Positions 14,649 through 62,742 of a stretch of 64,000 bases of DNA are shown here, one piece after another. How positions within the stretch are numbered: position 1 is the stretch's first letter; every line of letters starts with the position of its first letter. Under the pieces are notes generated by a model, which saw only the letters and a program-made list of their open reading frames with translations, was not told the DNA's origin and did not search any database. The position numbers and the translations under genes are program-made. The DNA comes from an uncultured virus (IMG/VR IMGVR_UViG_3300030102_007128) (taxonomy: Duplodnaviria; Heunggongvirae; Uroviricota; Caudoviricetes): the IMG/VR virus record IMGVR_UViG_3300030102_007128. One strand, given 5' to 3'.

Positions 14649-17600
14649 ATGAAAAAATTACCAAAAAGATTTACGGTTACGAAAAAACAAACAATAGACG
14701 GACAAACATATAATGTTGGAGATTACGCCTTAAAGAAAAAAAGAGCAGGAGGAGGAGTATATCTAAATATGGATAATGGGGAAATGTTAGGTGTTGATAG
14801 TGATAATATATCTAAATTGACTGAAAAGTTTGAAAAAGGTGGAGATATAAACAACTATAAATACTCATTAAGAGTAATAGAGGGACAGGTTGAGCCTTTG
14901 GGTTTTAATAATATACAAGATTATTTGAGTTCGGTATCTGAAACTGAAGGTTTTGAAAGTGCTTTTTACAATGAAAAAGATGGTAGAATATATACAAACT
15001 CTAAAGAATTTTATGATTTCATAGAAGATGATGCGGTAGGGTATGCAAAAGGTGGTTCGGTATACTCACAAATGAACTTAACTAAATCTGAATTGAAAGA
15101 AAAAGAAGAATTAAAAAAAGTAGTAAGTAAATCATTTGATTGGTATACTTATAAAAAAGGAAGAGCCTGGACTACTTCAGATACTAAAAAATTAGCAGAA
15201 AAACTATCTCAAAATATAAAATCTTTGAAAGAGTTTCCACAAGTATTGAATAGAGTTAATATAAGAGAGTTTATTGATGAGTTGGAAGGATATTCAGTTC
15301 CAAAAAACAAAGGTATAAATTATGTAACCGAAAGTTTATATTCTTACTTTATGAAAGGAGATGGATATGCAAAAGGTGGAAAGTTAAGTAGTAATGACAA
15401 AAAGTCAATAGATGAATTTATAGAAGAAGATATTTCAATGAGTGATAAGTATGATGATATGGGATTAGAAACACCTGATTATGAAGAATATGCTAACGAA
15501 ATTACTGAACAAGGAGTAGTAGATAAATCTAAAAAGAAAGATGTATTAAAATATATTAAATCAACACTTGGAAAAAGAGATGAGTATATTAAGTATTGGC
15601 AAGAAGAAGATTATGCAAAAGGTGGCAGTATTGATAAAAAAATAGATGAAGTAGAAAGAAGTATTGATAATGAAACAGATATGGAAAGAATGGAAGAACT
15701 CTATGAAGAGTTAGAAGTTTTAGAAGAGGAAAAAGAACAACAATTATCAAAACAAAAAATGATGTTTGGCGGAACTACATCTATGCCAAGAGGAAGTGGT
15801 TGGGGAGATTATGAAAAAGGAGATAGAGTATTAAAGAAAAAAGATTTAATACCAGGAAATATGTATCTATCTTATAGTGGGCAGTTTGACGCTAAAAATG
15901 TAGTTTATATAATGCCTTTAAGAGATGGAAATCAGTTTTTTACAGACAAAATATTTTTTGTATATGTAGACCCAAAATCTAAAACCCCTAAATTAAGAGA
16001 TGAATATGATAAAGTGGTAAATATAGATGAAAGTGATTTGCGAGATAATGTTATGAATTATAATTTCTACAAGATAAAAAATCATAAATATAAGAAGCCT
16101 TCTAAATTCGACCACGGAGGAATAATTACAAGTAAAAGAGATTTAGATTTAGTTGTAGGTGCGATGATGAAGATAGCAGTAGATAATGATTGTACCAAAA
16201 ATGATAGTTATTGGACAAAAGAACGAAAAGATAGATTATCATCTTTAGCAGTTGATATGTTAAATAAACACAAACATATGTATATGAAAAAAGAATATGG
16301 TGTGGGTGGTGTATTAGCAGGTGCTTTAGTCGGTGGGTATATTGGTTATAAATATGGATTAATACAAGAACAAAGAAAACTTGAAGATTTATTTAGAACA
16401 GAGAAAAAACTCGCTAAAGAATACAAACAAAAATATGATGATAGAAAGAAAAAATATGAAGAAGGCGGTTCTGTTATGAACCCTGATACGCCTAAAATAT
16501 ATGTGGCTGACTTAAAAGCGTATAATGAAGGCAAGTTAATAGGTGAGTGGATAGATTTAACTGATTATAGTGATGGATATGAAGTTCAAGAAAAAATTGA
16601 TGAACTTATGAGTGATTATAGTGATAAATATCATAGTGGAGAAGAAACAGAACACGCTATACACGATTACGAAAACTTTGATAGTAGTTTATATAGTGAA
16701 TATATGGGGGAAAGAGAATACGATATTATCATACAAACTCACAATATTTCAGAAGACAAAGACATACCTGCTGAAGTTTTACAAACAATTATGAATGATT
16801 TTAGTGAGGCTGAAGATAATTTAGAAGAATTTGTAGATGATAGATATGTAGGAGAGTTTGATAATGATAGTGAAATAGGAGAGTATTATGTAGATATGGT
16901 AGGCGGTATTGAAGGAGTTTCAAATCCTGAATACTATTTTGATTATGAGGCTTTAGGAAGAGATTTATCAATTAATGACTACAACGAATATGACAATCAC
17001 TATTTTAGAAACTATAAAAAAGGAGGAGAGATAAAAGAATATGATTTGTCTAAATATGAAAAAGGTGGAGCATTAGAAAAAGAATTTAAGTTTGACAAGA
17101 ATTTTGTTATATATGTTCCTTCAACATCTGATGTGGGAAATAAAGTATCTAAAAGAGTAGATGAAGTAGAGAAGTATGTCGCTAATGAGTTTGGTGGTTA
17201 TACAGAAACAGAGACCGATGGAGGTTATAAATCAACATCAGGGGAGATAATAGAAGAAGATATAGTTAAGATATCAGTATTTGCCAACAATAAAGATTGG
17301 AAAAAGAATGAAAGTAAAGTGGTTTCTAAAGTAAAAGAATGGGCTACAAAATGGGGGCAAGAAGCCATAGGGTTTGAATACGAGGGAGATTTATACTATA
17401 TAGATGAAGAGGGTAAATTTGCAAAAGGTGGTAGTGTTTCCACACTAAAAACAGAATATATTAAATTCTTAAAAGATAATGATGTTGATGTTGATAAATT
17501 AAAATTTAGATATAGAAAAGTTGGAACTTATGGAGATGAAGAAATTTGGACACACGACAAAAAAAGTGGTCGTTCAGGTTTTGTAATAACAAGAGATGAT

Positions 17601-18262
17601 TTTGAAAGCATTAAAAAAGATGACCCTAAAGATTTTGTTTATGGTTATAGTTTACCCACAAAATATGCAAAAGGTGGTGTAACCGTGGGTTTTTATGATG
17701 AAGGACAAAAATCAATGAGATTTCAACAATTTGATAATAGAGAAGAAACTAAAAAGTTTTTAGAAAAAGAGGGTATGAAAGAGGTTAAAAAAGACCCTAA
17801 AACAAGAAAAGAATTTAAGTTTTATGCAAAAGGTGGTAGTGTTTCGTATGATAAAATGAATAATGTAGATAGTAATCAGTATAGAATGATTGAAAGAGCA
17901 GTTAGAGGTAGAGATGTTTTATTACGAACAAAAGGCGATAAAATATTTGTTATTGATGAAAGAAATGACAAAATATATGAATACGAAATATATGGCAAAC
18001 AAAAAATAGAGGATTTTGTTGATAAACTAAAATCAAGTTATGCAAAAGGTGGAGTGATTAAAAAAGGAGATTATGTTAGAGATGCGAGAGGAGAGTTAGG
18101 GTTAGTAAACAAAGTTAAGAAAGGAATTGCCTATGTAAAATACCCTTCAACTAATCCAAATGCTTTTGAGCCTGTCTTTTTACNNNNNNNNNNCACGAAA
18201 TAAAAGAAACAAAAGATATGCACAAAGGAAGAAAAGTATATACAGATTTTTATGATAAATAA
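14649..18262 (+). CDS. Modular polyprotein with 14 [YFM]xxGG linkers; includes an ArdA module and a glycine-zipper hydrophobic segment
   Basis: Linkers FEKGG, YAKGG x6, MMFGG, FDHGG, YGVGG, YEEGG, YKKGG, YEKGG, FAKGG. After the gap at 18184-18193 a frame reads HEIKETKDM...YDK to a stop at 18262. Confidence 0.75.
16470..17012 (+). other. ardA: ArdA antirestriction domain embedded between two GG linkers
   Basis: TPKIYVADLKAYNEGKLIGEWIDL...EHAIHDYEN...YFDYEALGRDL...YFRN. These are the hallmark ArdA N- and C-terminal motifs, about 180 aa, very acidic. Confidence 0.85.
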
Positions 18263-18265
18263 GAT

Positions 18266-20155
18266 ATGAAAAAAAGAAATATAAAAGAAGAAAACGAAAG
18301 AGTTGAGAAAGATTTTCCTAAAAATCCTGACAATATATCAAAAGATGAATTACACGAACATTTTGATTTAGACCAAGATGGAAAAGTAACTCTTGAAGAA
18401 TATGCAGAACATATTGACTTTCATTGTGAAAATCCAGCAGTTTTACAAGATGAATTAGATTATGAGAGGGGTTTTATGTATAAAGATGGAGGTAAAGTAA
18501 AAGAACTCAAAGAATATCTTGCTGAATTGTTGAAAGAGTATAAAGAAAATTATAGTAGTTTGTCTAACTATGAAAGAAGTGAAATAGCAAGGCTTTTCAT
18601 AGAAAACTTTATCGAATATCAACATTTAACTAAAACAAAAATGTTTAAGAAAGGCGGATTGACACCTGCTAAAGCAAAAAAAATGTTAAAAGATGGAACT
18701 GCCCAAGGAAAACCTTTGACAGATAAACAAAGAAGATATTTTTACGCAGTTTCTAATGAAAAAATGAAAGACGGAGGAGAAACAATTAAAGGTGTTAGTT
18801 TTAGACAATATATACTAAAGTCAAAAGATAAGAGTAAAGCCAACGGATTGTATGTTTATAATCCTTATTACAAGAGATTTGGATATATTAATGATGAAAA
18901 TCTTGATAAAGGCAAAATACCTTATAGAGTAAAAGTTCACTATAATAAGACATCAGGATTAGGTAAAGGAACATTAATGAATATAAACGACTTAATTATA
19001 GTAGATGAGAGAAGATATGATAAAGGAGGTATAGTTTTTCCCGAAAAATTTACTGGTAATGATGATATAGTTTACCTTAAAACCAAAGAGGACTCAAGAG
19101 GTGCTCACTATAACTTATTTTATAAAGGGCATAATATTGATAGAGGTGGATATAGGTTTGGAAGTAAAAAAGAATTAAAAGATTTTGCAGATGATTATGT
19201 TCTTTCTAATCAATTATATAATAAGTTAAGATATGAGAAAGAAGGCGATTATAAATATGAAAAAGGAGGCGAAGTTGATTTGTTCGACAACTATGAAAAA
19301 CTACCATCTAAACCAAAAAATATAATAGATAAGTATATGAAAAAATATGAAGAGGGTAATTACAATTATGAAGATAGTAAAGAGTTTCTTAAAAAAATGG
19401 AAGCCGAGGGATATACTTTTGAGTATGGTTTAGATAATGAGCCTTATGATTTAAGAAAAATGGAAAAAGGTGGTGAGGTAAAGGGCTACAAAAAAACACA
19501 ATCAGAAATTAAAGATNNNNNNNNNNCACCTAATTATGACTATGATTATGAAGATATAGGTCAATTTTCAATGAAAGATGAGAATTGGAAATACTTTACT
19601 CAAGAAGATTTTAGAGATATAGGTAAAGAAATAACAGAAACCGCCTTCAATGGAGATTTAGATGTAGCATATGAAAGTATAGTAAAGCAAAGAAGTTCTT
19701 TTGAAAAAGGAGGTATGACAAAAGAAGATTATCTTAAAAAGAAATTTGATGTAAGAGAATTTGTAGATGAAGATACAGGAGAGTTAGTTCCTATTGAGAT
19801 ACCTATTGATAGAGATAAAAGAGTTTCAAAATCTTATAGTCCTTCTGAAAGAAGAAGAGAAAGAAAAAGAGAACTCAAAGATTTTCAAAGAATGGAAGAA
19901 CTTCAAGATTTACAGGGAGATATAGACACACTTAAGTATAAGTTAGAAGATGAAAAAAAATATTATGATAGTTTGTTTGTAGACCAAGATATAGAGGCAG
20001 GACAAAAAGGGGAAAATTGGAGTGATGATGATGCTAATAGATATGGAGTAATGATGAATGAAAGTGCTGAAAAAATAGCCGCAATCAAACTTTTAATAGA
20101 TAAAAAACAGAAAGAATATAACGAAAAAGAGAGTTCTTATAGTGAATTTTATTAG
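18266..20155 (+). CDS. Second [YFM]xxGG-linker polyprotein with N-terminal EF-hand motif
   Basis: FDLDQDGKVTLEEY; linkers YKDGG, FKKGG, MKDGG, YDKGG, YEKGG, MEKGG, FEKGG; gap at 19517-19526. Confidence 0.7.
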   Translation: MKKRNIKEENERVEKDFPKNPDNISKDELHEHFDLDQDGKVTLEEYAEHIDFHCENPAVLQDELDYERGFMYKDGGKVKELKEYLAELLKEYKENYSSLSNYERSEIARLFIENFIEYQHLTKTKMFKKGGLTPAKAKKMLKDGTAQGKPLTDKQRRYFYAVSNEKMKDGGETIKGVSFRQYILKSKDKSKANGLYVYNPYYKRFGYINDENLDKGKIPYRVKVHYNKTSGLGKGTLMNINDLIIVDERRYDKGGIVFPEKFTGNDDIVYLKTKEDSRGAHYNLFYKGHNIDRGGYRFGSKKELKDFADDYVLSNQLYNKLRYEKEGDYKYEKGGEVDLFDNYEKLPSKPKNIIDKYMKKYEEGNYNYEDSKEFLKKMEAEGYTFEYGLDNEPYDLRKMEKGGEVKGYKKTQSEIKDXXXXPNYDYDYEDIGQFSMKDENWKYFTQEDFRDIGKEITETAFNGDLDVAYESIVKQRSSFEKGGMTKEDYLKKKFDVREFVDEDTGELVPIEIPIDRDKRVSKSYSPSERRRERKRELKDFQRMEELQDLQGDIDTLKYKLEDEKKYYDSLFVDQDIEAGQKGENWSDDDANRYGVMMNESAEKIAAIKLLIDKKQKEYNEKESSYSEFY

Positions 20156-21301: not shown

Positions 21302-22237
21302 ATGGCAAGAAAACGAACAAGAAGTAAAAAGTCGCCAATTGAAAAAAGATTTCAAGCGACAACTCCTAATCATAAATACGGGTTATTACCTGTAAACAAC
21401 CTAACCTATGGAAACCCAAACGCTCAACAAAGTATTTTAGTAGAGAAAAAAGGAGATTTTGACTATATATCAGAGTATTTTTTAGATAAGCCTTATCCAA
21501 ATAACGATGGTAAATACGCTCAAAGTGAATTATCTAAAATTACTCAAGAAATGAAAAAACTTGAATATGACAATGTTATATCTATGTCATATAAGTTTGA
21601 TGAGGATTTGAAAGGTATGTGTGTTGATATGGCTAATAAATGTGGTGTAGGGAATCCTCAAAAATTTGTAGAGAGTGTTTTCAATGATATAGATAGTGTA
21701 ATTATGAAGTTAAAGTTCTATTATAATAGAATTAGACCTTTTCAATTAGCAAACATCTATCAATATCCACTTAATCCTATGCCTACAATAAATGCACAAT
21801 CACCATCATATCCTTCAGGGCATACGGTTCAATCAAAAGTTGTCGCTGATATATTGTCTTATAAATATCCAGATAAATCAGATATATTACAAAAATTTGC
21901 TGAAAAATGTTCAAATTCAAGAATTATATTAGGAGTTCATTTTCCTTCTGATGAAGTTTTTGGTTTACAGGTAGCCGCAGGGATAGTAAAAGACACTAAA
22001 TTTCAAAATAAATATTTTACAAAAAAAGTTTTAAGTCCAGAAATAAACAACCTGGAACAGGATAAAGCACAAGAAATGTTTAGCCCACCTAAAGGCAGAC
22101 AAAGACAAACAATGCAACCTAATATTATAAATAATGAAAGTGAAATTTTTGGAGGGCTTCCTCAAGAAGAAAAACCTATCGACCATCATTTATCAGATAA
22201 TGAAGTTTTTGGGGGTTTACCAAGACAACAAATCTAA
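21302..22237 (+). CDS. PAP2-superfamily acid phosphatase/haloperoxidase-like protein
   Basis: KFYYNRIRP, SYPSGH and SRIILGVHFPSD match the three PAP2 motifs. Confidence 0.85.
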   Translation: MARKRTRSKKSPIEKRFQATTPNHKYGLLPVNNLTYGNPNAQQSILVEKKGDFDYISEYFLDKPYPNNDGKYAQSELSKITQEMKKLEYDNVISMSYKFDEDLKGMCVDMANKCGVGNPQKFVESVFNDIDSVIMKLKFYYNRIRPFQLANIYQYPLNPMPTINAQSPSYPSGHTVQSKVVADILSYKYPDKSDILQKFAEKCSNSRIILGVHFPSDEVFGLQVAAGIVKDTKFQNKYFTKKVLSPEINNLEQDKAQEMFSPPKGRQRQTMQPNIINNESEIFGGLPQEEKPIDHHLSDNEVFGGLPRQQI

Positions 22238-22241
22238 AAAT

Positions 22242-22860
22242 ATGACAGAAAGTAAATATCATTGGATTATAGATGCTGGACACGGCGGTCTTCATCCTGA
22301 AACAAAAGAATATCAAACGAGAGGGAAAAGAAGTCCTAAATTTCCACCTTCAAGTAAATATAAAGGTGAAGTTCTATATGAAGGTGTTAGAAATAGAAAA
22401 GTATTAGAATATCTTAAGCCTTTGTTAGAAAAAGATAACATAGGTTATAGTGTTGTTTCTGAAAAATGGAAAGACATATCATTAAGTGATAGAGTAATCA
22501 AAGCCAATCAAATAGCACAGGAAAAAGATAATTGTATATATCTATCTATACATCATAACGCATATGGAAAAGGGTGGAATAATGCACACGGTATTTCAAC
22601 ATATCACTTTCCAAAATCAGAAAAAGGATTTAGATTGGCGAGTGTTTTTCAAAGTAGAATTGTAGAAGAGATGAAGTGGAGAAGTAGAGGTGTTAAAAAT
22701 GCTAACTTTTATGTATTAAAATATACCAAAATGCCGGCAGTATTAACTGAAAATGGCTTTATGACTAATTTGAAAGAGGCTGAAGTTTTGATGAGTGATA
22801 AAGGAAGTAAAANNNNNNNNNNTTAAAGAGATAAATGAAAGAGGATTAAATTTTTTGTAA
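22242..22860 (+). CDS. N-acetylmuramoyl-L-alanine amidase (Amidase_3 endolysin)
   Basis: IIDAGHGG, YEGVRN, LSIHHNA and MPAVLTENGFMTN. The start at ATG 22242 and the end beyond the N gap (22813-22822) are inferred. Confidence 0.85.
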
Positions 22861-25958: not shown

Positions 25959-26864
25959 ATGAAAATAGATTATATAATACCTACAATTGGCAGACCAGAA
26001 ATAGAGAGAACTAAACAATCTATTTTTGATGAAAGAATAAATCACAATATATTAATATGTGATACTGAAAATTCAGCAGGTGAAAACAGAAATAAATGTT
26101 TAGAAAAAGTAAAAGATAGTGATTGGATAGTTTTTGTAGATGATGATGATTATTTAGTTAAAGGACATAGTAAAGAGTTGGATAAGAATTACGATTGTGT
26201 TGTTTTAAGAATGAAAAAAGAATATGAAGATGTAATTATACCAAGATACAACGACAATGAGTTAAGAAGTGGAAATATAGGTATCAACTTTGCATTAAAT
26301 ACAAAATTTTATCTAAAACATAAATTTTTATTTGATAGTAATGGTAATGAAGAAGATTGGAGATTTTTTGCAAGAGTTTTTCTAACAACCAAAAAAATTA
26401 AAATAACAGATGATATATATTATATCGCACCTAAAGGAAATTATAACAAAATGACAAATTCAGATTTCAAACAAAACATAACAAATATTTCAAAAGGAGA
26501 TAGAGATAAATATTTTCAACTACCTCAAAACATAAAAGAACACTCTAAAAGTAAAGGTTTTGACAAAACAATGAGTGGTATCAAAAGAAGATTAGAAGAG
26601 CAGTTAGAAATAAGAAAAGAGTATGTTCAATTATTAGAAAATAAACAGAAAGCGTATGAAGATTATTTAAGTAAGCCTAATGAAGAAACAAAAAAAGAAC
26701 TCTTTTATAGAACCGCCGCAGTAGATAAACATAATTTAGATATTGAGATAACAGCACAAAAAAATGTGTTTTTAGACACTTACATATATTATAAAGAAGA
26801 TTTCTTAAAGAGATATGAAAATGATAAAGGAAAAAAACAGAGTGTTTTTATAAAAAATAAATAA
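25959..26864 (+). CDS. GT2-family glycosyltransferase with helical C-terminal extension
   Basis: IIPTIGR, AGENRN, WIVFVDDDD and EEDWRF. Confidence 0.75.
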   Translation: MKIDYIIPTIGRPEIERTKQSIFDERINHNILICDTENSAGENRNKCLEKVKDSDWIVFVDDDDYLVKGHSKELDKNYDCVVLRMKKEYEDVIIPRYNDNELRSGNIGINFALNTKFYLKHKFLFDSNGNEEDWRFFARVFLTTKKIKITDDIYYIAPKGNYNKMTNSDFKQNITNISKGDRDKYFQLPQNIKEHSKSKGFDKTMSGIKRRLEEQLEIRKEYVQLLENKQKAYEDYLSKPNEETKKELFYRTAAVDKHNLDIEITAQKNVFLDTYIYYKEDFLKRYENDKGKKQSVFIKNK

Positions 26865-27832
26865 TGAAAAAAGCACTTATAACAGGAGTAACGGGTATGG
26901 ATGGAAGTCATCTTACTGACTTTTTACTTGAAAAAAACTATAAAGTTTATGGTATGGAAAGAAGGTCATCTTCTAAAAACAGGACCAACACTAAAACTTT
27001 TCAAGATAATTCTAATTTCAAGTTTGTTAATGGAGACCTTTCTGACCAAAATTCATTACTTCGTGTTATTAGAGAGTGTCAGCCTGATGAAATATACAAT
27101 TTAGGAGCGCAATCTTTTGTTGGAGAAAGTTGGAACACGCCTGAAAACACAGGCAACATTACAGGTTTAGGTGTTTTAAGAATGTTAGAGGCTATAAGAG
27201 AATACGGAGAGCCTGTTAAATTTTATCAAGCATCTACTTCAGAAATGTTTGGTAAAATGAGTGGTGTGGCTGATGAAAAAACAATATTTTATCCAAGAAG
27301 CCCGTATGGAGTTGCAAAACTTTATGGGCATTGGATTACAAAGAATTATAGAGAATCCTATAATATGTTCAATGTTTCAGGAATACTTTTTAATCACGAA
27401 AGCGAAAGAAGAGGTGTTGAATTTGTAAGTAGAAAAATAACTGATGGTGTTGCGAGAATATATTTAGGATTAGATACTCATATAACATTAGGAAATCTTG
27501 ACACCCACAGAGATTGGGGTTATTCGCCTGACTATGTATCTTCTATGTGGATGATGCTTCAACAAGAAAAACCAGAAGATTTTGTCATATCAACAGGAAA
27601 GACATATAGTTTATGTGAGTTTATCGAGATAGCGTTTTCTCAAATACAAATTAAAGATTGGAGAAAATATATAAAACAAGATGAAAAATATATGAGGCCT
27701 GCAGAAGTAGATTACTTAAAAGGCAACTCGAATAAAGCAAAAGATGTTCTCGGTTGGGAGCCTAAAACAAATTTTGAAAATATGATTAAAAAAATGGTTG
27801 ATAATGATATAGAACGACTAAAAAATGAATAA
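26864..27832 (+). CDS. gmd: GDP-mannose 4,6-dehydratase
   Basis: KKALITGVTGMDGSHL, PDEIYNLGAQSFV, FYQASTSEMFG, YPRSPYGVAK, GILFNHESERRG, RDWGY and RPAEVD. Confidence 0.95.
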   Translation: MKKALITGVTGMDGSHLTDFLLEKNYKVYGMERRSSSKNRTNTKTFQDNSNFKFVNGDLSDQNSLLRVIRECQPDEIYNLGAQSFVGESWNTPENTGNITGLGVLRMLEAIREYGEPVKFYQASTSEMFGKMSGVADEKTIFYPRSPYGVAKLYGHWITKNYRESYNMFNVSGILFNHESERRGVEFVSRKITDGVARIYLGLDTHITLGNLDTHRDWGYSPDYVSSMWMMLQQEKPEDFVISTGKTYSLCEFIEIAFSQIQIKDWRKYIKQDEKYMRPAEVDYLKGNSNKAKDVLGWEPKTNFENMIKKMVDNDIERLKNE

Positions 27833-28601
27833 TAAACCTAAAATATATGATTGTTTTTTATTTTATAATGAATTAGAATTGTTAGAAATAAGATTAAACA
27901 TTCTAAATGATTTTGTAGATAAATTTGTTTTGTTGGAATCTACCAAAACATTTAACAATAATGAAAAAAAATTGTATTATCAAAACAACAAAGATAAATA
28001 CAAAAAGTTTCAAGATAAAATCATACACATTATTTTAGATGAACATCCTCCTTTTACAAAAGGTTGGGATTATGAAAGATATCAAAGAAATTGTATCATA
28101 AAAGGTTTAGATGAGGCTGAAGATGATGATGTTATCATTTTATCAGATTTAGATGAAATACCTAATCCAAATTTGCTAAAACAAATTTATAAGTTACCAG
28201 GAATAAAAGTATTAAAATTACCTACATTTTATTATTACCTAAATCTTTTAACTAATGATATTGCGATGTGTAGCAGGATATTTACAAAAAAACACTTGAA
28301 TAAATTGACAATGCAAGAAATAAGAACTCAAGGAGATACATTATATGTGAAAGACACAGGATGGCACTTTTCTTTTATTGGAGATGAAAATTTTATAAAA
28401 AACAAAATAGAAAACTTTTCACATCAAGAGTTTAACACCAAAGAGGTTAAAAATAATATAAAAAATAATATAAATAAAGGTGTGGATATTTTTAGTAGAA
28501 AAGGCTTCAAAACTAAATTTGTTAATATGTCAAACAATTTTCCTAAATATATTTTAGATAATTTAGAAAAGTATAAACACTTAATAAAACAAAAAAAATG
28601 A
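27825..28601 (+). CDS. GT17-family N-acetylglucosaminyltransferase-like protein
   Basis: IYDCFLFYNELELLEIRL, ERYQRN, ILSDLDEIP, GWHFSF and FSHQE. Confidence 0.85.
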   Translation: MNNKPKIYDCFLFYNELELLEIRLNILNDFVDKFVLLESTKTFNNNEKKLYYQNNKDKYKKFQDKIIHIILDEHPPFTKGWDYERYQRNCIIKGLDEAEDDDVIILSDLDEIPNPNLLKQIYKLPGIKVLKLPTFYYYLNLLTNDIAMCSRIFTKKHLNKLTMQEIRTQGDTLYVKDTGWHFSFIGDENFIKNKIENFSHQEFNTKEVKNNIKNNINKGVDIFSRKGFKTKFVNMSNNFPKYILDNLEKYKHLIKQKK

Positions 28602-29419
28602 GAGAACCAAAATTAGGTATGGCCGTAGGCAAAAAAGGTATTGGTAAAACTTATCAAACCAAAATGCTTTTAGAAAGTTATGTTTATGGTAATCCTGAAA
28701 AAGGAGTAAAACCAAGAAAGGTTCTTATATTAGATGTTAATGATGAGTTTGAAGATTACAAAGCAATATCAATGAATGATTTAGTAAAATTTTCTGTTAT
28801 GCCTCACGCAGAAATTAGAAGAGTAAGACCTTTTGATGAAACGACAGGGGTTAGATTAACTCTAAATGAAATCGCAGATTGTTTGTGGAATATACTACAT
28901 TATTTTAGAGGTGGTATGCTTTTAATTGAAGATATTAACAAATATGTGTCTGACTTTTTGCCTAATGATTTAGTAGGCGCAATTTGTTCAAATAGACATA
29001 CTGATTTAGATATAATTATGCACTTTCAAAGTATTGGAAGAATTACAACCAAAATATGGCAAAACGCTAATTGGTTAAGATTTCATAAAAATTCTGATAG
29101 TGTAGAAAGACACAGAAACAAATTTCCTGACAAATATCAATTATTTAGTATAGCCGAAAACATTGTAAATAGTCAATATTTTAATGATAATCCACGATAC
29201 TTTATATATATAGATTTAGATGAAGAAAAAATTAGAGGTAAAATAACACCTCAAATGAGAGAGAACGCCATTGATGATTATTTATCTAAAAATTATAATT
29301 CGATAGTAAAACCTGCTATTAACAAAAAGAATTTAAGAGATGGTAGTAAGATAAATAAAGAAGAGGCTATTATAGAAGTTAGAGAAAGATTGAAAAAACA
29401 ATATTTTGTAATTGATTAA
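28598..29419 (+). CDS. A32/FtsK-HerA-type ATPase, putative genome packaging ATPase
   Basis: Walker A GKKGIGKT, ILDVNDEF, Walker B LLIEDIN, then NRH and MHFQS (Arg/His and Gln motifs). It is 273 aa with no nuclease domain. Confidence 0.7.
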   Translation: MREPKLGMAVGKKGIGKTYQTKMLLESYVYGNPEKGVKPRKVLILDVNDEFEDYKAISMNDLVKFSVMPHAEIRRVRPFDETTGVRLTLNEIADCLWNILHYFRGGMLLIEDINKYVSDFLPNDLVGAICSNRHTDLDIIMHFQSIGRITTKIWQNANWLRFHKNSDSVERHRNKFPDKYQLFSIAENIVNSQYFNDNPRYFIYIDLDEEKIRGKITPQMRENAIDDYLSKNYNSIVKPAINKKNLRDGSKINKEEAIIEVRERLKKQYFVID

Positions 29420-29420
29420 T

Positions 29421-30884
29421 ATGAAAAGATACGATTTAATAAACGCATTAATAAAAAAACACAACTACAAAAATTATCTTGAAATTGGAGTGAGAGATAA
29501 TAGGTGTTTTGACAAAATTAAGATAAAAGACAAAAGTGGTGTTGACCCTATGCAAGATGAGTGGGAAATAGAAAAAGGCAAAGCCACAGGTTGGGATAGT
29601 TCAAAAGTTCCCGTTAAATACCGAATGACATCTGACGAGTATTTTGAAAATTACAATATAAAATATGATATTATTTTTATTGACGGTTTACACGAAAACG
29701 AACAAGTTTATCGAGATATTCAAAATTCATTAAATTGTCTTAATGAAGGAGGAACTATACTAATGCACGATTGTTTACCTGAAAAAGAAGAGCATCAAGA
29801 AATTCCGAGAAAATCTAATTATTGGAATGGAGATGTTTGGAAAGCGTATGTTCGTGTTAGAAATGAGAGAAAAGATGTTGAAATGTGTGTGGTTGATACA
29901 GATACAGGTGTAGGAATTATAAAAATATTAAATAAAGAAAATTACCTTTCAGAACCTGCTGTCAAAGGAAAATTGATTTTAGATTGGAATAACTATGTAG
30001 AAAACAAAGAAGAATGGATGAATATAGTATCTACTGATTATATAACATTATATATAGGTGAAGAATATTTTGAAAATAAAAGGGTTCAGACATTTTTACA
30101 TTCAGGAGGTTTAGGAGATGTAATATGGTCTTTGCCTTTTGTTATAGCAAACAAAGGAGGAGATATGTATTTAAGAAATCATAGTGTTATAAGTGCTACT
30201 AATATGCAGTTCAAAGGTTTGTTCAGAATATTAACAACTCAACCGTATATAAGAAAAGTAATAAAATATCCTATAAATTACGCAAATAAAGACATTGATG
30301 TTCATACAGGAGTTCTAAACCATCCTGACAAAGTAAGATATAGTCCTGATATAGAAATAGACATAGATTTAGATTTTTTTAGATTATCACCATTTCTAAA
30401 TAAAGAACATTTACTTACATCATATTTTACTGCGTTCAAATTGGCACCTCAAAATTTACCTATACCTTTTTTGAAGTTAGATGAAAGTTTTGATTTCAAA
30501 AACAAAGAATTGAACAAAAAAGTTGAAATACCAAAAATTAAATATAATGTTTTTCATATTACTCAAAGACATAGATGCGATTTTGATTGGAAAAAATTAA
30601 TACAAGAACAATCAGAGCCTAATTATTTTATAGGACTTAAAGAAGAGTATGATGAAATAATTAAAGATTACAAGGTTAAAGATAATTTAATATATTATGG
30701 TCACAAAGTAAAAGATGTTTACGATATGGCTATTATGATAAATCACGCAGAAAATATTTTTTGTAATCCTTCTGTTGTTCATTGTTTGGCAGTTGGCTTA
30801 AACTTGCCATATAATTTAGTTGTTCATCCTGATTTCGACGCTGTAAAAACATTTCTGCCAATAGAAACGATAGTTAATAAATAA
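29421..30884 (+). CDS. Class I SAM methyltransferase (Methyltransf_24-like) fused to a GT-B/GT9-like domain
   Basis: YLEIGV, YDIIFIDGLH and GGTILMHD in the N half; HSGGLGDVIWSLP begins the second domain. Confidence 0.7.
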   Translation: MKRYDLINALIKKHNYKNYLEIGVRDNRCFDKIKIKDKSGVDPMQDEWEIEKGKATGWDSSKVPVKYRMTSDEYFENYNIKYDIIFIDGLHENEQVYRDIQNSLNCLNEGGTILMHDCLPEKEEHQEIPRKSNYWNGDVWKAYVRVRNERKDVEMCVVDTDTGVGIIKILNKENYLSEPAVKGKLILDWNNYVENKEEWMNIVSTDYITLYIGEEYFENKRVQTFLHSGGLGDVIWSLPFVIANKGGDMYLRNHSVISATNMQFKGLFRILTTQPYIRKVIKYPINYANKDIDVHTGVLNHPDKVRYSPDIEIDIDLDFFRLSPFLNKEHLLTSYFTAFKLAPQNLPIPFLKLDESFDFKNKELNKKVEIPKIKYNVFHITQRHRCDFDWKKLIQEQSEPNYFIGLKEEYDEIIKDYKVKDNLIYYGHKVKDVYDMAIMINHAENIFCNPSVVHCLAVGLNLPYNLVVHPDFDAVKTFLPIETIVNK

Positions 30885-33604: not shown

Positions 33605-33916
33605 ATGTTTGATGAAGCACAAGAAATAACTTTTGATAACAATAGTCAGTTAAACAAATCTAAACAAATGGTACCGCCAGATGTTCAGACAAGTATAAAT
33701 AATATTGTTAATACAAATCAATCAGATGTTGCTAAAAACGAAACTAAAGAAATGATAAAAGGTGGCGTTTTAGGAGCGGTTATTGGGGCAATATTGTGTC
33801 TTTACAGAGGTAAGAAAGTATGGTTAGGCGTGTTAGCAGGAGGTTTAGCAGGTGGATATTTAGCAAAAGAAGGTATTGTAAAAATATCTAAAGAAAAAAA
33901 AGAAGATAAAGAATGA
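33605..33916 (+). CDS. Glycine-zipper membrane protein
   Basis: GGVLGAVIG and GVLAGGLAGG segments. Confidence 0.7.
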   Translation: MFDEAQEITFDNNSQLNKSKQMVPPDVQTSINNIVNTNQSDVAKNETKEMIKGGVLGAVIGAILCLYRGKKVWLGVLAGGLAGGYLAKEGIVKISKEKKEDKE

Positions 33917-34743
33917 ATTTATTATTTAAGACAAAACAGAGGTCATTAACATTAATGATAGAAGTTGCTACAAGACAACCAGAAAAAATACAGATTGTAG
34001 TAAAAGATATCAATAAGCCTGACACAAAATATACTGATAGATATTCTACGGTAAATGGAGTTCAGAGATTTTTTGTTAGAATGCCTATTTCGCCTTACGA
34101 AGCACTTGTAAGTGTCTATAATAATAAAAATGGCAATCTGAAACAAGGAGCAGACCCTACTTTCAAAGTAATTAAAGTAGATGCTCGACCATTAGAAAGA
34201 AAAATGGATTGTGTTGATTGGAGTAATCCTAAAATAAGAGATTTTGTAGGATTTGCTCAACAATTTAGTAATAATGCAGGTATATTAAGTGCAGGAGCCT
34301 ATCCAAATGGTAGCACATATATATCTGATGAAGGTAATTTTAGAATAGATTACTTTGATAATATAAAAAGTAAACAAGGAAGAGTTATTCCCACACCCGC
34401 AAGAATAAGTCAAACAAAAGGGATTATTCAAGTAAGTAGAGACCATTTCAAGAAATTCACGGTTCCTATGAGAATGGCAATTTTACTACACGAATTTTCT
34501 CACTTCTATCTTAACGATAGAATGGAAGATGAAACAGAGGCAGATTTGAACGGATTACTTATCTACCTCGCACTCGGTTACCCGAGAATTGAAGCGTATC
34601 AGTCGTTTTTAACAACATTCAAAGACACGCCTACGCAACAAAATAAAGAGCGTTATGAGATTTTACATCAATTCATAACGAATTTTGAAAGAAATAAATT
34701 TTGCACGACACATAGTAATCCAATGTTGAGAGCAAGTAAATAA
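33913..34743 (+). CDS. Zincin metallopeptidase (candidate maturation protease)
   Basis: AILLHEFSH plus downstream ETEAD; located within the structural cluster. Confidence 0.7.
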   Translation: MNLLFKTKQRSLTLMIEVATRQPEKIQIVVKDINKPDTKYTDRYSTVNGVQRFFVRMPISPYEALVSVYNNKNGNLKQGADPTFKVIKVDARPLERKMDCVDWSNPKIRDFVGFAQQFSNNAGILSAGAYPNGSTYISDEGNFRIDYFDNIKSKQGRVIPTPARISQTKGIIQVSRDHFKKFTVPMRMAILLHEFSHFYLNDRMEDETEADLNGLLIYLALGYPRIEAYQSFLTTFKDTPTQQNKERYEILHQFITNFERNKFCTTHSNPMLRASK

Positions 34744-51363: not shown

Positions 51364-52038
51364 ATGGGAATAACAATAAGACCAGCAGAAGGACCAGACA
51401 CCGTAAAACCTTATAAACCTTGGGGTGGAGTACCTTTTGTAAATCCAAATATGGTTCGACCTTCAGTAGGACAAACAAGATATTATAATATGGCAGCAGT
51501 AACAAATGGAGGAAATGTAATAGATGCTGAATTTTTTGTAGCAGGTGACAAAATTGTGCAAGATTTCCCAAATACTTGTGGTCCTTTTCCACAACTTGGA
51601 GGGTGTGGAGAGGCTATAACACCTTTTACTGGAACGATTACAGGAAATACAAGTGATATAGTAGATGAAGGAGGAGGTTTGTTAGGAGTTGAGTATGAGG
51701 TAAAGTGGGATAGGAAACCAGGAGATACTTCTATGACTACTTATGATGTTTTTACTTACGAAAACCCATCCAACTTTAGAAGAGTACCTTCAGAGTTACC
51801 ACCACCACTAACTACTACTCCTACAAGTCAAGCAGATTGTCGAGAAGGAGAAACTTTCGTAGAGGCTGTTTACCCACCTTGTGTCGTTGATGAAGAGTGT
51901 TTTCCTGTAACACCAGCATATTGTCAAGGACCTACGGGAGATATAACTCCAACAACAGCAGGAACAACAAGTAAATCAATATTACCGATACTTATAATCG
52001 GTGGTTTAATATATTATTTATATACAAAAGACAAATAA
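51364..52038 (+). CDS. C-anchored membrane protein
   Basis: TTAG-TM-KDK; Cys pairs. Confidence 0.7.
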   Translation: MGITIRPAEGPDTVKPYKPWGGVPFVNPNMVRPSVGQTRYYNMAAVTNGGNVIDAEFFVAGDKIVQDFPNTCGPFPQLGGCGEAITPFTGTITGNTSDIVDEGGGLLGVEYEVKWDRKPGDTSMTTYDVFTYENPSNFRRVPSELPPPLTTTPTSQADCREGETFVEAVYPPCVVDEECFPVTPAYCQGPTGDITPTTAGTTSKSILPILIIGGLIYYLYTKDK

Positions 52039-52040
52039 AT

Positions 52041-53084
52041 ATGGCAGATAATTGGATACAATCAGTAGATAAAGAAATGAAAAGAAAGGGTACCGTAGGT
52101 GCTTTTACTAAAGAAGCCCAAAAAGCAGGTATGTCAGTTCACGATTTTGCTACTAAAGTTATGAAAAACCCTGAAGATTTTTCTAAAAGAACAAGAGAAA
52201 GAGCAAATTTAGCCTTAACTTTTGAAAGAATTGCTAAAGACAAAAAGAAAAAGAAAATGATGTATGGAGGTAAAACTAAAATGGCTCACGGAGGTATGTC
52301 GCAAGGATATGATGATAAATTAGATGAAAGTTTAGGTATGAGAACAGGAACAGGTAGTATGAGTAAACAATCATACAAAGACAGAAGAGATGAGAGTAAA
52401 GCCGGAAATAAGATGTTAGGAAGAAGAGCATATGCAAGTGTTGAAAGTATGGATAAAGGAGATAGAATGATGATGGATGGAGGCGATACTGAAATGATGT
52501 ATGGTGGTAAAACCAAGATGATGCACGGAGGAAAAATGAAGATGATGGAAGGCGGTAAAATGAAAATGGCTCACGGAGGTAGAATGAAACAAGGATATGA
52601 TGCGAGAGAAGATGAGAGTTTAGGAATGAGAAGAGGAAAACAGAGTTCTAAAAAAGTATCTGCTAAAGGAAGAAGAGATGATTCCTATGGTAAATTCGGT
52701 AAAAGAGATGAAGAAGATAGAGATATTACTTTAGCAAAAGGTGGTAAATTATCTGCTGAAGCAGTTAAAAAAGGATATATAAGAAGAGATAGATACGATA
52801 AACTGAAAAAAGAGAAAGATGAAAGGATTGATGACTTAAAACAAGATTTGAAAGATAAAGGAGCAGATTGTGCCGAAGACATCAAAACAATGAAGAAAGA
52901 TATTGGTAAGAAAGTTGCAAAACGAATAGACCAAGTAGAAAAACAGAAAGAGAAAGAGTGTGATACTGCTTTCGAAACTTTAAGTGAAACGAAAGACAAG
53001 AGTAAAAAAGAAGAAACAACAGATAGTTTTGTTCTTGGAGGTGTCGCAGGATTGTTGTTAGGAATATTTTTTATGGGTAGATAA
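52041..53084 (+). CDS. Basic protein with eight [ML]xxGG linkers, duplicated QGYD...DESLGMR unit and C-terminal glycine-zipper TM
   Basis: MMYGG x2, MAHGG x2, MMDGG, MMHGG, MMEGG and LAKGG. Confidence 0.75.
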   Translation: MADNWIQSVDKEMKRKGTVGAFTKEAQKAGMSVHDFATKVMKNPEDFSKRTRERANLALTFERIAKDKKKKKMMYGGKTKMAHGGMSQGYDDKLDESLGMRTGTGSMSKQSYKDRRDESKAGNKMLGRRAYASVESMDKGDRMMMDGGDTEMMYGGKTKMMHGGKMKMMEGGKMKMAHGGRMKQGYDAREDESLGMRRGKQSSKKVSAKGRRDDSYGKFGKRDEEDRDITLAKGGKLSAEAVKKGYIRRDRYDKLKKEKDERIDDLKQDLKDKGADCAEDIKTMKKDIGKKVAKRIDQVEKQKEKECDTAFETLSETKDKSKKEETTDSFVLGGVAGLLLGIFFMGR

Positions 53085-53356
53085 TGAGTTGTAAATGTAA
53101 AAATAGTAGAAAAGAGTTTCATCCTTGTCAGCACGGAGGAAAATGTCAATGTGGCGGTAAGTGTAGAGGAAAACAGACAAATGATTTTTACAATGCCGCA
53201 GGACAATATGATGAACACAATTTTAATGTAGTTGGAAGTTTAGATGAGTTCAAAGATGAAAGTGAAAATGTAGGTAGAGTTATTCTATATACAATAGGTG
53301 GTTTAACACTTGCTGGTATAGGATACTATATGTATAAATATAAATTAAAAAAATAA
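53084..53356 (+). CDS. Small protein with metallothionein-like Cys N-terminus and C-terminal TM
   Basis: CKC...C.HGGKCQCGGKC; FYNAAG motif. Confidence 0.65.
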   Translation: MSCKCKNSRKEFHPCQHGGKCQCGGKCRGKQTNDFYNAAGQYDEHNFNVVGSLDEFKDESENVGRVILYTIGGLTLAGIGYYMYKYKLKK

Positions 53357-54611: not shown

Positions 54612-55148
54612 ATGAATAGAGAAATAAAAGAAATAGGAGTTTATGTATTAGATAACAGAGGTGAAGTTATTTCGTTTTTGAATAGAAATGGCTACTCAAA
54701 TCTACCTTCTAACGCACCATTATCTACAATCAATGATGTTATCGCAGACAATATGTTTAGTGAGCATTTTTGGAATATGTTTGTAGATGATATGCAAAGA
54801 AATTCTGGATATTCAAACTGGCTTGTTGAAGTTGTAGGTATAGTTACCCAAATAGGTGTGAGTATAAATAAAATGTTTGTAGATGCTAAAATGGCTTTAT
54901 TTCAGAGAAATATGATGAGCCGTCAAGAAGTTCGAAACAGAGAAACAGAACAATTTTACAAAGATTTAGCAGAGTTAAACGCAAAAAAACAAATGGCGAT
55001 AGAGTTAGGTGTCGCACAACAAGATGTTTTATTAAAGAGAGAATTACAAAGAGAAAAAGGAAAAAGATATGATTATCTTATTATGTTTGGCTTATTCGTA
55101 GGTGGAGCATTAACAATAGGATATATAATTAGAAAAAAAAATAAATAA
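54612..55148 (+). CDS. Membrane protein, paralogue of 54062
   Basis: VL.N..EVI...N..G N-domain shared. Confidence 0.7.
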   Translation: MNREIKEIGVYVLDNRGEVISFLNRNGYSNLPSNAPLSTINDVIADNMFSEHFWNMFVDDMQRNSGYSNWLVEVVGIVTQIGVSINKMFVDAKMALFQRNMMSRQEVRNRETEQFYKDLAELNAKKQMAIELGVAQQDVLLKRELQREKGKRYDYLIMFGLFVGGALTIGYIIRKKNK

Positions 55149-58165: not shown

Positions 58166-58291
58166 GTGAATAACAATATAGTAATAGGTTCTGTTTTAGT
58201 AGTTTGTGTAGTAGGCTCTGCCGTTTTATTCAGAGGTGCTTACAGAAAAATAGTTCAAATTTCTACAAATAAGAGATTTGAAAATGAATGA
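58166..58291 (+). CDS. 41-aa membrane peptide (GTG start, not in ORF track)
   Basis: MNNNIVIGSVLVVCVVGSAVLFRGAYRK... Confidence 0.45.
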   Translation: MNNNIVIGSVLVVCVVGSAVLFRGAYRKIVQISTNKRFENE

Positions 58292-58949
58292 TACAACACA
58301 ACTTAATTCTATGCGTTTTTCACCAATTAAATTGCCTTATAGGTATAATTCATTAGAGCCTTATATTGATGAGGAAACTATGATGATACACTATAATAAG
58401 CATTATTTAGGTTATTTGAAAAAATTTAATGATTTAGTTGATAGATATGATATAAACCAACCTGTCATACCTATTATGCAAGATGTTAATAGATATCCTG
58501 AAGATTTAAGAAACAATGGAGGTGGTTATGTAAATCATTCGTTGTTTTGGAAAATGTTAAAGCCAAACCCTAAAGGAAAATTAAATAAACCAAAAGGTGC
58601 CTGTATGCAGAAAATACTTGAAGAATACGGAACCTTTGGTGAATTTAAGAATTTAATAGTAGAGGCTTCAAAACAAAGGTTCGGTTCAGGATGGGTATGG
58701 TGGGTAATGAATAAAGATGGAAGCACAAATATCTTATTAACGCCCTATCAAGACAATCCTTATATGCCTGAATATAATGCTTATCCATTATTAGGTATTG
58801 ATGTGTGGGAACACGCATATTATCTTCAGTATGATGCTGATAGAGAAAAATATGTAAAAAACATATTTAATATCATAGATTGGGATGAAATAGAAAATAG
58901 ATGTGTAGTAGGCAATAGAAGTATTTTTGATGTTCAAATTGTTAATTAA
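58284..58949 (+). CDS. sodA: Fe/Mn superoxide dismutase, Mn-type signature
   Basis: LPY.Y..LEPYIDEETM.IH..KH, NNGGGYVNH, FGSGW, QDNP and DVWEHAYY. The exact start is uncertain. Confidence 0.9.
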   Translation: MNDTTQLNSMRFSPIKLPYRYNSLEPYIDEETMMIHYNKHYLGYLKKFNDLVDRYDINQPVIPIMQDVNRYPEDLRNNGGGYVNHSLFWKMLKPNPKGKLNKPKGACMQKILEEYGTFGEFKNLIVEASKQRFGSGWVWWVMNKDGSTNILLTPYQDNPYMPEYNAYPLLGIDVWEHAYYLQYDADREKYVKNIFNIIDWDEIENRCVVGNRSIFDVQIVN

Positions 58950-58960
58950 AAAATTAAAAA

Positions 58961-59149: not shown

Positions 59150-59159
59150 ATGTAAATAT

Positions 59160-59834: not shown

Positions 59835-59836
59835 AG

Positions 59837-62742
59837 ATGAATAAAACAGAAGACATAAAAAAACAACTTGAAAATCTATCAGATGATGATGGATATATTG
59901 GCTATTACGAGGCTCGAAATTTTTTACAATCTAATTTACCTGATTTAGATGAATTTGAGTTAGATGAGGCTATGGAAGATTTAGAACCTGATTATTCAAA
60001 TTATGAAGATGAAGAGGTTTTTTATGTATTAGATGTAGAAAATAAATATGATGAATTAAAAACATCTTATGCAAAAGGAGGTAAAATAAAAATGTATGAT
60101 GAATTACAGGAATATGAAAACGATGCTCAAATAGGAGATAAAATCTATGTAGGATATGGACTTGCTAAAAAAAATATAACTAAACCTGAATACGAGGTGG
60201 TTGGTAAAAACCCTGATGGAACAATAAAAGTAAGAAATTATGGAAGTAAGGCAAAGAAAACTTTTTTAACATTTGGTCCGCAATCTTATGATGAGCAAGT
60301 TATGGTGTTTTCAAAAGGCGGGAAAATAGATGTAGTTGATGAAAGAAGTGTAGGTAAAATGAAAATAATTGTTTTGAATGATGGTAAAACTTCAAGAACA
60401 ATAACTTTCAAAGATGGAGTTCAAAATAAATTCAATAGAAACAAAAAAGAAGATATAGAAAAACTTTGGGATTTGTCTGGTAAAGTTCCTTACGGCACGA
60501 TAGTAGATAAAAACTACAAGTTTGAACACGGTGGTAGTATATTAGAGAAATCTTATAATCCTCAAGAAGTTTTTGATATGATAACTCAAGCAGGAACTTG
60601 GGAAGAATTTATGAGTGCAGACGGAGATGGTAGATTAGAAATATATAATAACGCAAAATACAGATTTGAAAAGGGTGGTAAAACAATAAGCAGAGAAGAA
60701 GTAGTAGAAGTCCTTAAAGATAAGTTAGAAGATGTATTAGAAGATGCTAATCAAGAATATGAAGGACAAGAAATAACAGGAGAAGAGGTAGAATACGAAA
60801 GTAGAGATGGTTTTATACCTTATACTGATGGGGGTTATGAATACAGATTTTTTACATACGGAAACTATTTGACAGGTTCAGGAAAATCTTTACCTACAAA
60901 TACTTTAGATGCTGAATTAGAAAGAGTAGAAAATCTAAATTATGAATATGGCAAAGAAAGATTTGAAGAAGAATATCCTGACATAGTAAAAGAATTAGGA
61001 GGTATTGAAAATGTTGATTATAATTCCTTATCTGAGGCAGGTTATGAAAGTGAGGCAGATGATTTAGATGAGTTTTCGAGAAGTGATGATGATAGTATTA
61101 TGTTTGAAGTAGAAGCATTTTATTACAAACCTGATAATGATAGAGGTGTTGATGGTAAACATACAATCGTATTATCAGGAAGTGTAAATATGGAGGCGCC
61201 TTATCACCGAACAGGTAATATGGAAGATTATATACAAGAAACATTCACTTTTGATAGTATAAAAGATTTAGAAGACAAGTTAGATAAATCTATACCTAAA
61301 ATAGAGGCTTGGTTTGATGGAGATAATTATAAACAAGGAAAAGAATTAAAAATGGGAAGATTTGAAAAAGGTGGTGAGGTTGAGAAACACTATAAAATAG
61401 AGTTTTTAGATGAAAATGAAGAGATTATAGATGTTGAAAGATATGGAAACACAGAGCCGGACCAAGATGATTACTATGAGATGGCGAGCAAATTAAACGC
61501 ATTTTCTGGAATTGTTTATAGTTATGATGAAGATGATGAAGATGGCACCTTGAAAGATGAGGGTTTTTATGAAACTGATTTTGGTGTTTTTCAATATAAA
61601 AAAGGTGGTTTAATCAGAGAATATATCAAACCAAAAGGAATGAGATTACTTTCTGATGAAAGAAAACAAAAAATAAAAGAGGCACAAAAAGAGTATGATA
61701 AAAAACCAAACGACATAAATCAAGCAGCATTACAAGGACAAATAGATAGAGCAGTAGATGAGGTAGAAAATAGAGTAATGGGTATTGATGGAAAATACGA
61801 AAGTTATTTAGTTAGATATGCAAAAGGTGGTAGAATTTTGGTAGGTAGATTTGATGAAAAACAACTTAAAAATAAAGAGGATAAAAAAGCGATAGAAAAG
61901 GCACAAAAAGAAAGTGGCTTAACATATATAGATAGTAAAATCATTAAAAAAGGTGGTAAAATGTTTATGGAAGTTTATCTAATCCCTAATGAAGAATACT
62001 ATAAATCCTCAAAATTTTCAAAAGGGGGTTATGTTACCTCAAGAAATATAAAAGAGAGTGTAAGAGAGTATTTAATGGATAAGGTGCCTTATGTTCGAAA
62101 GCCTGTTGATTTAGAAGAGGTTAATACGGTATTAGATTTTACTAAATTACCTGATGATGTGAAAACTGCTATCTTAAATATGAAAAAAATAGTAGTAAGA
62201 GATGATGAAGATTTATCTTTCTTCAAATCAAGATTAGATGGAGATATACAATTCTATATTCTATTTATTAAAGGAGAGCCTTATTTAGTAGATACACAGG
62301 GATACGATTACGCTCGATATATAGTAAGAATAGTTGGGGCAGGAGAAGAGTTAAGTGTTAAATTATCTAATTATGTAGAATACACCCCTTATGCAAAAGG
62401 TGGTATAATAACAGGAGCAGGAAAACCAGGTTTAGATAAAATTAAAAAAATATCTAAAGACAATCCAAGTCAAATGTATAAGGTAACTGATGATAATTAT
62501 ACAAATATTGGAACCTTTTATCTTAAAAATGGAAAGTTTGCTAAAATGACGGTTTCAAATGCAGATTATGATTTTGCTTACAACAAAGTATCATTAAGAC
62601 CTAAACGAGATGTTATATATAAAGCAACAGAGATAGAAGNNNNNNNNNNTTCGCAAAAGGAGGAAAAGTAAAAAGTAATAATAACGAAATGATAATTGGA
62701 GGTTTAGCAGGTATTCTGTTTGGCTTCTTATTAAATAAATAA
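59837..62742 (+). CDS. Third large [YFM]xxGG-linker polyprotein, ending in a glycine-zipper TM
   Basis: About 10 linkers. After the gap at 62640-62649 the frame reads FAKGGKVKSNNNEMIIGGLAGILFGFLLNK to a stop at 62742. Confidence 0.75.

Follow-up and report, generated by a model that had tools for sequence, protein, structure and literature searches.

Four proteins encoded in a 64,000-nucleotide stretch of DNA from an uncultured marine phage (IMG/VR record IMGVR_UViG_3300030102_007128; this whole stretch is called the window hereafter) are polyvalent phage proteins, that is, strings of small, independently folding modules, one of which is ArdA. The modules of these cassette proteins, designated A, B, C and D, are joined almost directly by copies of a short peptide with the extended form [YFM]-[AE]-K-G-G-x-[VITL], which probably acts as a cutting or loading signal. 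The peptide is kept whatever modules lie beside it; selection therefore acts on the peptide as such, and whatever reads it must be shared by all junctions. Literature searches found no description of it, and a query with the pentapeptide returned Strep-tag constructs only. Every large open reading frame (ORF) of the window lies on the plus strand, with a GC content of 27–36%, and the four cassette ORFs give a clean translation except at three masked 10-base runs.

The observation is real, because the motif is both enriched over shuffled sequences and concentrated in the four cassette ORFs. An earlier inspection of the letters of the window (the sequence-only reading) had counted about 40 [YFML]-x-x-G-G pentapeptides in these proteins, and the count holds: [YFM]xxGG occurs 39 times, or 40 times with L allowed, against 3.0 ± 1.7 copies (11 at the largest) in 2000 residue shuffles of the four proteins. 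The 7-mer [YFM]xxGGx[VITL] was observed 33 times, with 0.59 expected from the shuffles. There are 49 GG dipeptides in the four ORFs, and Y, F or M stands three residues upstream in 39 of them. Among plus-strand ORFs of at least 50 amino acids, 34 of the 37 matches to the strict pattern [YFM]x[KDEH]GG fall within the cassette ORFs, which account for 3,123 of the 21,377 residues (15%). Not all GG pairs are junctions; the YTDGG of D is located inside a conserved domain and an MVGG inside ArdA.

A search with D yielded 103 metagenomic proteins, which cover just 6–38% of D except for three closer ones at 57–74%, and 5 to 23 copies of the motif are present in 98 of these 103 relatives. In a logo built from 979 distinct contexts, the first position is Y (44%), F (29%) or M (20%), the second A (61%) or E (16%) and the third K (63%), followed by two glycines (100% each), a free position and V (26%), I (25%), T (19%) or L (13%), with almost no information outside these seven residues. 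Proteins differ beyond chance in how often they have K at the third position and M at the first (chi-square p ~2e-7 and ~1e-8, respectively). Both glycine positions use all four Gly codons, and the peptide is present in viral contigs spanning 31–59% GC; therefore, selection acts on the amino acids. Other searches for relatives gave no match, whether with the DNA of 14649–20155 among cultured phages, by tblastn against cultured phages with D, the 33913 and 273-residue ATPase proteins described below and the A 808–926 module, by scanning IMG/VR for close relatives of D, A, P0071 and P0011, or by a scan of genome contigs with an alignment (A1) of the central module of D.

The modules are independent units bounded by the motif, as the sequence-only reading had proposed, and breakpoints of module swapping, Pfam domain edges and the edges of AlphaFold2 (AF2) domains all coincide with it. 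For the breakpoints, the proteins were cut at the motif and those pieces with a match in another protein were scored for a reciprocal match covering at least 90%. With cuts at the motif, 678 of 763 pieces (89%) passed. When the cuts were slid by −20, +20 or +40 residues, the figure was 501 of 837 (60%), 494 of 839 (59%) and 458 of 872 (53%), respectively. The module families are separate and freely reshuffled among relatives, and the segments between motifs have a median length of 64 residues. Predicted domains running across the motifs would, according to the sequence-only reading, have refuted it, but this was not what was seen. Of the Pfam domain matches in A and the relatives, 30 out of 32 have no internal motif, and the two that have one are both DUF5824 matches taking in an upstream piece. 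ArdA begins 6–9 residues past a motif in 12 of 15 matches and lies at the protein N-terminus in the other three. In an AF2 model of D residues 97–690 (mean predicted local distance difference test score, pLDDT, 57.8, the alignment being shallow outside the central domain), all seven junction motifs fall at a pLDDT below 50 or in a local dip, and the YTDGG is found inside the confident central domain.

The ArdA module of A is complete and is delimited by the motif exactly as had been described: the Pfam family ArdA (PF07275) matches A residues 617–785 (E 2.8e-23; 83.7 bits with a cut-off of 27; profile positions 1–153 of 155), which fall between YEEGG and YKKGG. It is the only named conflict domain within the four proteins of the window. 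PHROG families likewise match single inter-motif segments, namely A 814–922, B 334–400 and C 11–66, and the B module at 336–403 matches phrog_37263 together with small proteins of Cellulophaga, Tenacibaculum and Polaribacter phages. No module is shared more widely than the central one of D, which is present in 55 of the 103 relatives at varied positions. Its alignment contains 40 invariant columns, including a P-Y-H-R stretch, and its block-mean pLDDT in AF2 is ~56–90. This module matched no Pfam family and nothing in Foldseek at E≤1e-3, and its best structural match (VIA), with a Z score of 8.3, is in the noise range. According to Pfam, the relatives combine ArdA, RelA/SpoT, Zeta toxin, Eco57I methylase and DUF5824 modules, and ART-PolyVal is found in a 1173-residue cassette protein of the related genome G001; in A–D, no domain of the polyvalent catalogue was matched at E≤0.01. 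Given ArdA, a DarB-like neighbour and the Zeta-toxin, RelA/SpoT, ART-PolyVal and Eco57I modules of relatives, it is reasonable to regard the uncharacterised modules as candidate anti-defence effectors. Delivery of the cassette proteins in the virion may be proposed from these kinds of domains and from the neighbouring genes.

The motif is also found at the ends of the proteins. It starts within residues 1–12 in 19 of 115 distinct N-termini of the relatives, for example in MELKNKYAKGGE followed by ArdA (the leader MELKNKYAKGG precedes ArdA in relatives), and only 40 of 1041 internal segments are as short as these leaders. Three proteins of the relatives begin directly with M-x-x-G-G. At the other end, the 120 distinct C-termini of the relatives include at least 19 that close, after the last motif and a Lys-rich stretch, in a conserved anchor, MLIGGLAGILLGIFLGRK, and the C-terminus of protein C is an anchor of the same type (mean hydropathy of residues 330–344, 2.45). 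A glycine-zipper hydrophobic segment had been noted in three of the four proteins, with the proposal that it tethers them to a membrane. The segment is indeed present in C, at the C-terminus, and in A, internally (residues 551–565, 15-residue mean Kyte–Doolittle hydropathy 1.64). D and B lack a hydrophobic segment (hydropathy maxima 1.03 and 1.01), so that the tether could apply to C and, through the internal segment, to A. Relatives of D do end in a hydrophobic tail, unlike D itself. A GlyGly-CTERM (rhombosortase) signal was considered for these tails and rejected, with no NCBIfam match at E≤0.1 for C, P0014 and P0011 and no apparent signal peptide. As a separate observation, at least six other ORFs of the window carry a C-terminal hydrophobic segment that starts hydrophobic-hydrophobic-x-G-G (e.g. 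LIIGGLIYYLY and LFVGGALTIGY) and is reminiscent of the MLIGG anchor in the cassette proteins.

Besides the peptide, the junctions share a DNA sequence. The window contains 8 exact copies of the 14-mer TATGCAAAAGGTGG, where 0.01 would be expected by chance, and these encode eight of the nine YAKGG sites, for which the codon usage of the same ORFs predicts ~0.1 per site. This suggests that a DNA-level process (microhomology-driven exchange, conversion or homogenisation) also shapes the junctions. It might then be asked whether the peptide needs a reader at all. Its GG could be a passive, flexible joint and its coding repeat a microhomology handle for the exchange of cassettes. The 14-mer, the swap breakpoints at the motif and the location of all the junction motifs in low-confidence linker stretches of the AF2 model are what such a hinge would predict. 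Generic linkers, however, are less strict than this peptide, in which seven positions are constrained, including the residue two past GG; the free use of Gly codons and the persistence of the peptide over a wide GC range speak for selection on amino acids; and a pure hinge is not needed at an N-terminus, where the motif also occurs, or in the 8-residue tandem arrays of C. We therefore consider a hinge without a reader unlikely. A role of the junctions as internal Shine–Dalgarno sites, with K-G-G coded as AAAGGAGG for a restart at each module, was rejected, since GGA at the first Gly (14 of 39) is rarer than at other Gly positions of the same ORFs (93 of 180).

We therefore return to a signal that is read, and first to a signal for cutting. 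Each polyprotein would be made as one chain, held in some proteins by the C-terminal membrane anchor or the N-terminal leader, and then cut at the junctions to release free effectors; in the Met/Lys-rich arrays of C, the same cutting would give short basic peptides. The coding repeat TATGCAAAAGGTGG would probably serve in addition as microhomology promoting cassette exchange. Within this virus family, a conserved stand-alone M48-like zincin encoded at 33913 is the leading candidate for the enzyme, and other lineages using the same peptide would employ a different enzyme, possibly one of the host. This processing reading, with the 33913 protein as the local candidate enzyme, is one that we hold tentatively, at somewhat less than an even chance.

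The 33913 protein has an HExxH motif and a conserved downstream acidic residue as predicted zinc ligand. Its viral family is large (603 cluster representatives at E≤1e-3) and uncharacterised, and in an alignment of 57 members H193, E194, H197, E207 and D211 are invariant. The AlphaFold model (pLDDT 94.6; predicted template modelling score 0.92) consists of an N-terminal beta-sandwich and a helical catalytic domain, for which the best structural match is BepA (6sar_A; Z 8.4, root-mean-square deviation 4.6, 119 residues), a Z of ~8 being near the noise level. The next matches are 3c37, Ste24, ZMPSTE24 and abylysin at Z 6.0–6.7. The protein shares with the M48 and minigluzincin peptidases (BepA, Ste24, abylysin) an HExxH on a helix and an invariant downstream Glu; it differs from them in lacking both an above-threshold Pfam M48 match and membrane segments, and in possessing the extra beta-sandwich. 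A sequence search of the PDB with this protein and with the 273-residue ATPase of the window found no match. The zincin is encoded in all six family records examined (the window, G001, G002, G004, G009 and G010), and shares 47% identity with its G001 counterpart. G003, a complete 160-kb genome, has no zincin, and its homologue of the D module is a 2222-residue protein without the motif. A complex prediction of the zincin with C residues 140–192 scored 0.00, which speaks neither for nor against binding. The zincin gene sits among genes for small membrane proteins.

Several points weigh against the processing reading. Immediate cutting would free every module but the last, which sits badly with a C-terminal anchor, and the three proteins that begin with M-x-x-G-G gain nothing from a cut. 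For the 33913 protein, Foldseek returned no match at E≤1e-3, and its family matched nothing in Pfam above threshold: weak matches were seen to PhageMetallopep in 8 of the 57 members, to SprT-like in 6 and to M56, M48 and M78 in 3 each (best E for M48, 0.066). The zincin is absent from G007 and G008, two complete genomes of another lineage that encode YAKGG proteins, and hence it cannot be the universal reader of the motif. Within the virus family, the link between zincin and motif is a co-occurrence confounded by common descent and is not independent evidence. The 14-mer shared by eight of nine YAKGG sites makes the pattern in part one at the DNA level. Finally, the match with a known phage cleavage site considered below, that of phage T5, is single and loose, and Arg stands there where the motif has Tyr, Phe or Met.

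A different protease had been suggested by the sequence-only reading, according to which the cassette proteins are membrane-tethered virion cargo, either loaded by way of the motif or cut after GG, in the latter case by a cysteine protease of the adenain/Ulp1 type. Adenovirus and African swine fever virus, whose clan CE proteases cut polyproteins at Gly-Gly sites of the form (M/L/I)-x-G-G, were the analogy, and in adenovirus small basic core proteins are also cut. The invariant Gly-Gly with a bulky residue upstream is a likeness, the basic arrays of C could parallel the basic core proteins, and C and many relatives have a C-terminal anchor. The virus family might also fit such a comparison. 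Its complete-rated member G001 (L010–L013; 68,799 bp) ends in exact 127-bp inverted terminal repeats, the family has a GC content of 30–35% and includes a 79.4-kb record (G009), and no terminase, portal, capsid (including HK97-type) or tail gene was recognisable with Pfam and PHROGs in the window, including its part at 20233–50000, or in G001, so that the virion may be non-tailed and membrane-containing. ESM Atlas look-ups of the 33913 and 23870 proteins were uninformative for the virion type. The analogy is nevertheless not supported. Protease families were searched for in the ORFs of the window and in five related records, two of them complete, and the clan CE families PF02902 and PF00770 were found in none of them. 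The register is off by one residue, being bulky-x-x-G-G instead of the bulky-x-G-G consensus of the known enzymes; B and D have no anchor; and the same motif occurs in the tailed phage G007. We consider the clan CE model highly improbable. The C39 family (PF03412) was likewise not found in the same set, the control genomes having matched in 7 of 14. No HExxH domain was found by Pfam in A–D either, and the zincin is encoded by a separate gene.

The peptide extends well beyond this virus family. A pattern scan for two YAKGG codings 60–70 residues apart found 44 viral contigs (IMG/VR loci L017–L060), with a rough chance expectation below 1. Most of these encode small Lys/Met/Gly-rich proteins, some with tandem MMKKKGYAKGG arrays and others with a C-terminal YAKGG-x-V-SASKRADGIAQRGKTKG tail. 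The unrelated complete phage genome G007 encodes a terminase, an HK97-type capsid protein, SU10 adaptors and a 3799-residue LPD38 polyvalent protein, and small basic proteins with the motif have their genes between those of the capsid and the adaptors (L063–L066, ~27.0–28.8 kb). Such a position would suit a peptide that is never cut and instead serves for docking or loading, so that the chains stay whole: it might, for example, direct incorporation into the particle, act in threading during ejection or bind a common partner. The occurrence of the motif in lineages that share no protease fits this as well, and so do its multivalent tandem arrays, its presence at extreme N-termini, where a cut would remove just 5–12 residues, and the C-terminal anchor, which implies localisation of the complete chain as a unit. 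Two points oppose it. A, B and D are acidic (isoelectric point, pI, 4.7–5.5), which makes DNA an unlikely partner to be tethered by the junctions, and incompatible effectors such as a DNA mimic and toxin-like enzymes would stay tethered together. An uncut tag is, in our judgement, a somewhat unlikely explanation.

How does the proposed cutting compare with systems already known? The internal proteins of T4 carry a capsid-targeting leader, one per protein, that is removed by the prohead protease, a serine enzyme, at an L/I-x-E site. A short leader ending in a protease site in front of an injected anti-restriction protein is what MELKNKYAKGG before ArdA would be, if it were cut; the T4 system differs in its serine protease, its site, its single leader and its lack of internal junctions. 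The tape-measure protein pb2 of T5 is cut after R1127 (Linares et al. 2023, PMC10038345). The site in the T5 record reads ...FVPR|AEGGMMYP, so that the cut is followed by A-E-G-G-M-M (A-x-G-G-x-hydrophobic), and a hydrophobic stretch and an enzyme domain are parted by it. The differences are that pb2 has one site, with Arg where Tyr, Phe or Met would be expected, and is a tail protein of an unrelated phage; the passages of that paper on the cut do not name the protease.

The closest comparison is with the polyvalent proteins themselves, the multi-effector proteins of phages and conjugative elements for which processing by zincin-like peptidases has been predicted (Iyer, Burroughs, Anand, de Souza, Aravind 2017, PMC5512222). 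The proteins of the window are like them in combining unrelated effector domains, here including ArdA, in one polypeptide. Unlike the polyvalent proteins as published, their modules are mostly tiny, one strict junction peptide is used throughout, and the zincin is a separate gene instead of an embedded domain, which is common though not obligatory in the family; the words 'linker' and 'glycine' do not appear in the text of PMC5512222. New here are the stand-alone M48-like zincin candidate, the N-terminal leaders ending in the motif, the conserved C-terminal anchor and the 14-nucleotide sequence shared by eight of nine YAKGG sites.

Polyvalent proteins hold a large stock of unknown counter-defence domains, the borders of which are usually guesswork. 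Here a short peptide marks borders that module swaps respect and, irrespective of its mechanism, already allows hundreds of metagenomic proteins to be divided into candidate effectors. Were the peptide a signal for cutting or loading, it would also explain the maturation or packing of these proteins, a question open since the family was first described. Going one step further, one may imagine [Y/F/M]-A-K-G-G-x-V as a widespread phage 'junction code', by which polyvalent proteins would give free anti-defence effectors and Lys/Met-rich arrays short DNA-condensing peptides, in the manner of adenovirus and its core proteins, read by lineage-specific or host proteases, here the M48-like zincin. Such a general code is speculative and we regard it as doubtful, but if it were true, every border between modules, in hundreds of proteins of uncultured phages, would set off an effector of its own and so provide a catalogue ready parsed.

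Table 1. Positions in the window of the cassette proteins, their parts and other features (aa, amino acids)
Feature	Position	Strand	Remarks
Cassette protein A, 1184 aa, 14 junction motifs, ~15 modules including ArdA	14649..18203	+	
ArdA module of A, residues 608-793	16470..17027	+	bounded by YEEGG (603-607) and YKKGG (789-793)
Internal glycine-zipper hydrophobic segment of A, GVGGVLAGALVGGYIGYKYG	16299..16358	+	conserved in P0049, P0061
Cassette protein B, 629 aa, 7 junction motifs	18266..20155	+	
Protein C, 347 aa, pI 9.7	52041..53084	+	N-terminal phrog_20603 domain, Met/Lys-rich M-x-x-G-G arrays, coiled region, C-terminal anchor
Tandem 8-residue M-x-x-G-G-K-x-K repeats of C, residues 73-180	52257..52580	+	
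C-terminal anchor of C, FVLGGVAGLLLGIFFMGR	53028..53081	+	same type as the MLIGGLAGILLGIFLGRK tail of relatives
Cassette protein D, 944 aa from ATG, 9 junction motifs and one internal YTDGG	59837..62671	+	alternative upstream TTG at 59780 gives 963 aa
Central conserved module of D, residues 301-532 (963-aa reading)	60680..61375	+	
Copies of the 14-mer TATGCAAAAGGTGG	15042, 15366, 15612, 17664, 17823, 18039, 61817, 62390	+	
Stand-alone zinc metallopeptidase, 276 aa, HEFSH 193-197	33913-34743	+	N-terminal beta-sandwich and M48-like catalytic domain; candidate processing enzyme
ORFs with hydrophobic-hydrophobic-x-G-G C-terminal segment	35349-36059, 37227-37586, 41851-42102, 51364-52038, 53084-53356, 54612-55148		
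DarB-like SNF2 helicase ORFs, directly upstream of A and B	6101..12284	+	PHROG DarB-like antirestriction 2.8e-13, Helicase_C, SNF2
273-aa ATPase, best-conserved gene of the virus family	28598-29419	+	
Masked 10-base N runs	6141-6150, 8295-8304, 18184, 19517, 22813, 50104, 62640		

Several neighbouring genes of the window may be mentioned. The DarB-like SNF2 helicase region (5200–14636, plus strand) is split into ORFs, the overlaps of which coincide with the masked runs at 6141–6150 and 8295–8304. Two further plus-strand genes encode a PAP2-family phosphatase (21302–22237), which is also conserved in G001, and an Amidase_3 endolysin (22134–22826). A sugar-modification cluster (25959–30884, plus strand) comprises a glycosyltransferase-like ORF, a GDP-mannose 4,6-dehydratase, a GT17-like glycosyltransferase and a methyltransferase-domain protein; relative to G001 it is an insertion around the conserved ATPase gene, and the glycosyltransferases of G001 differ and are sited elsewhere. 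The phage also encodes an Fe/Mn superoxide dismutase (58278–58949, plus strand).

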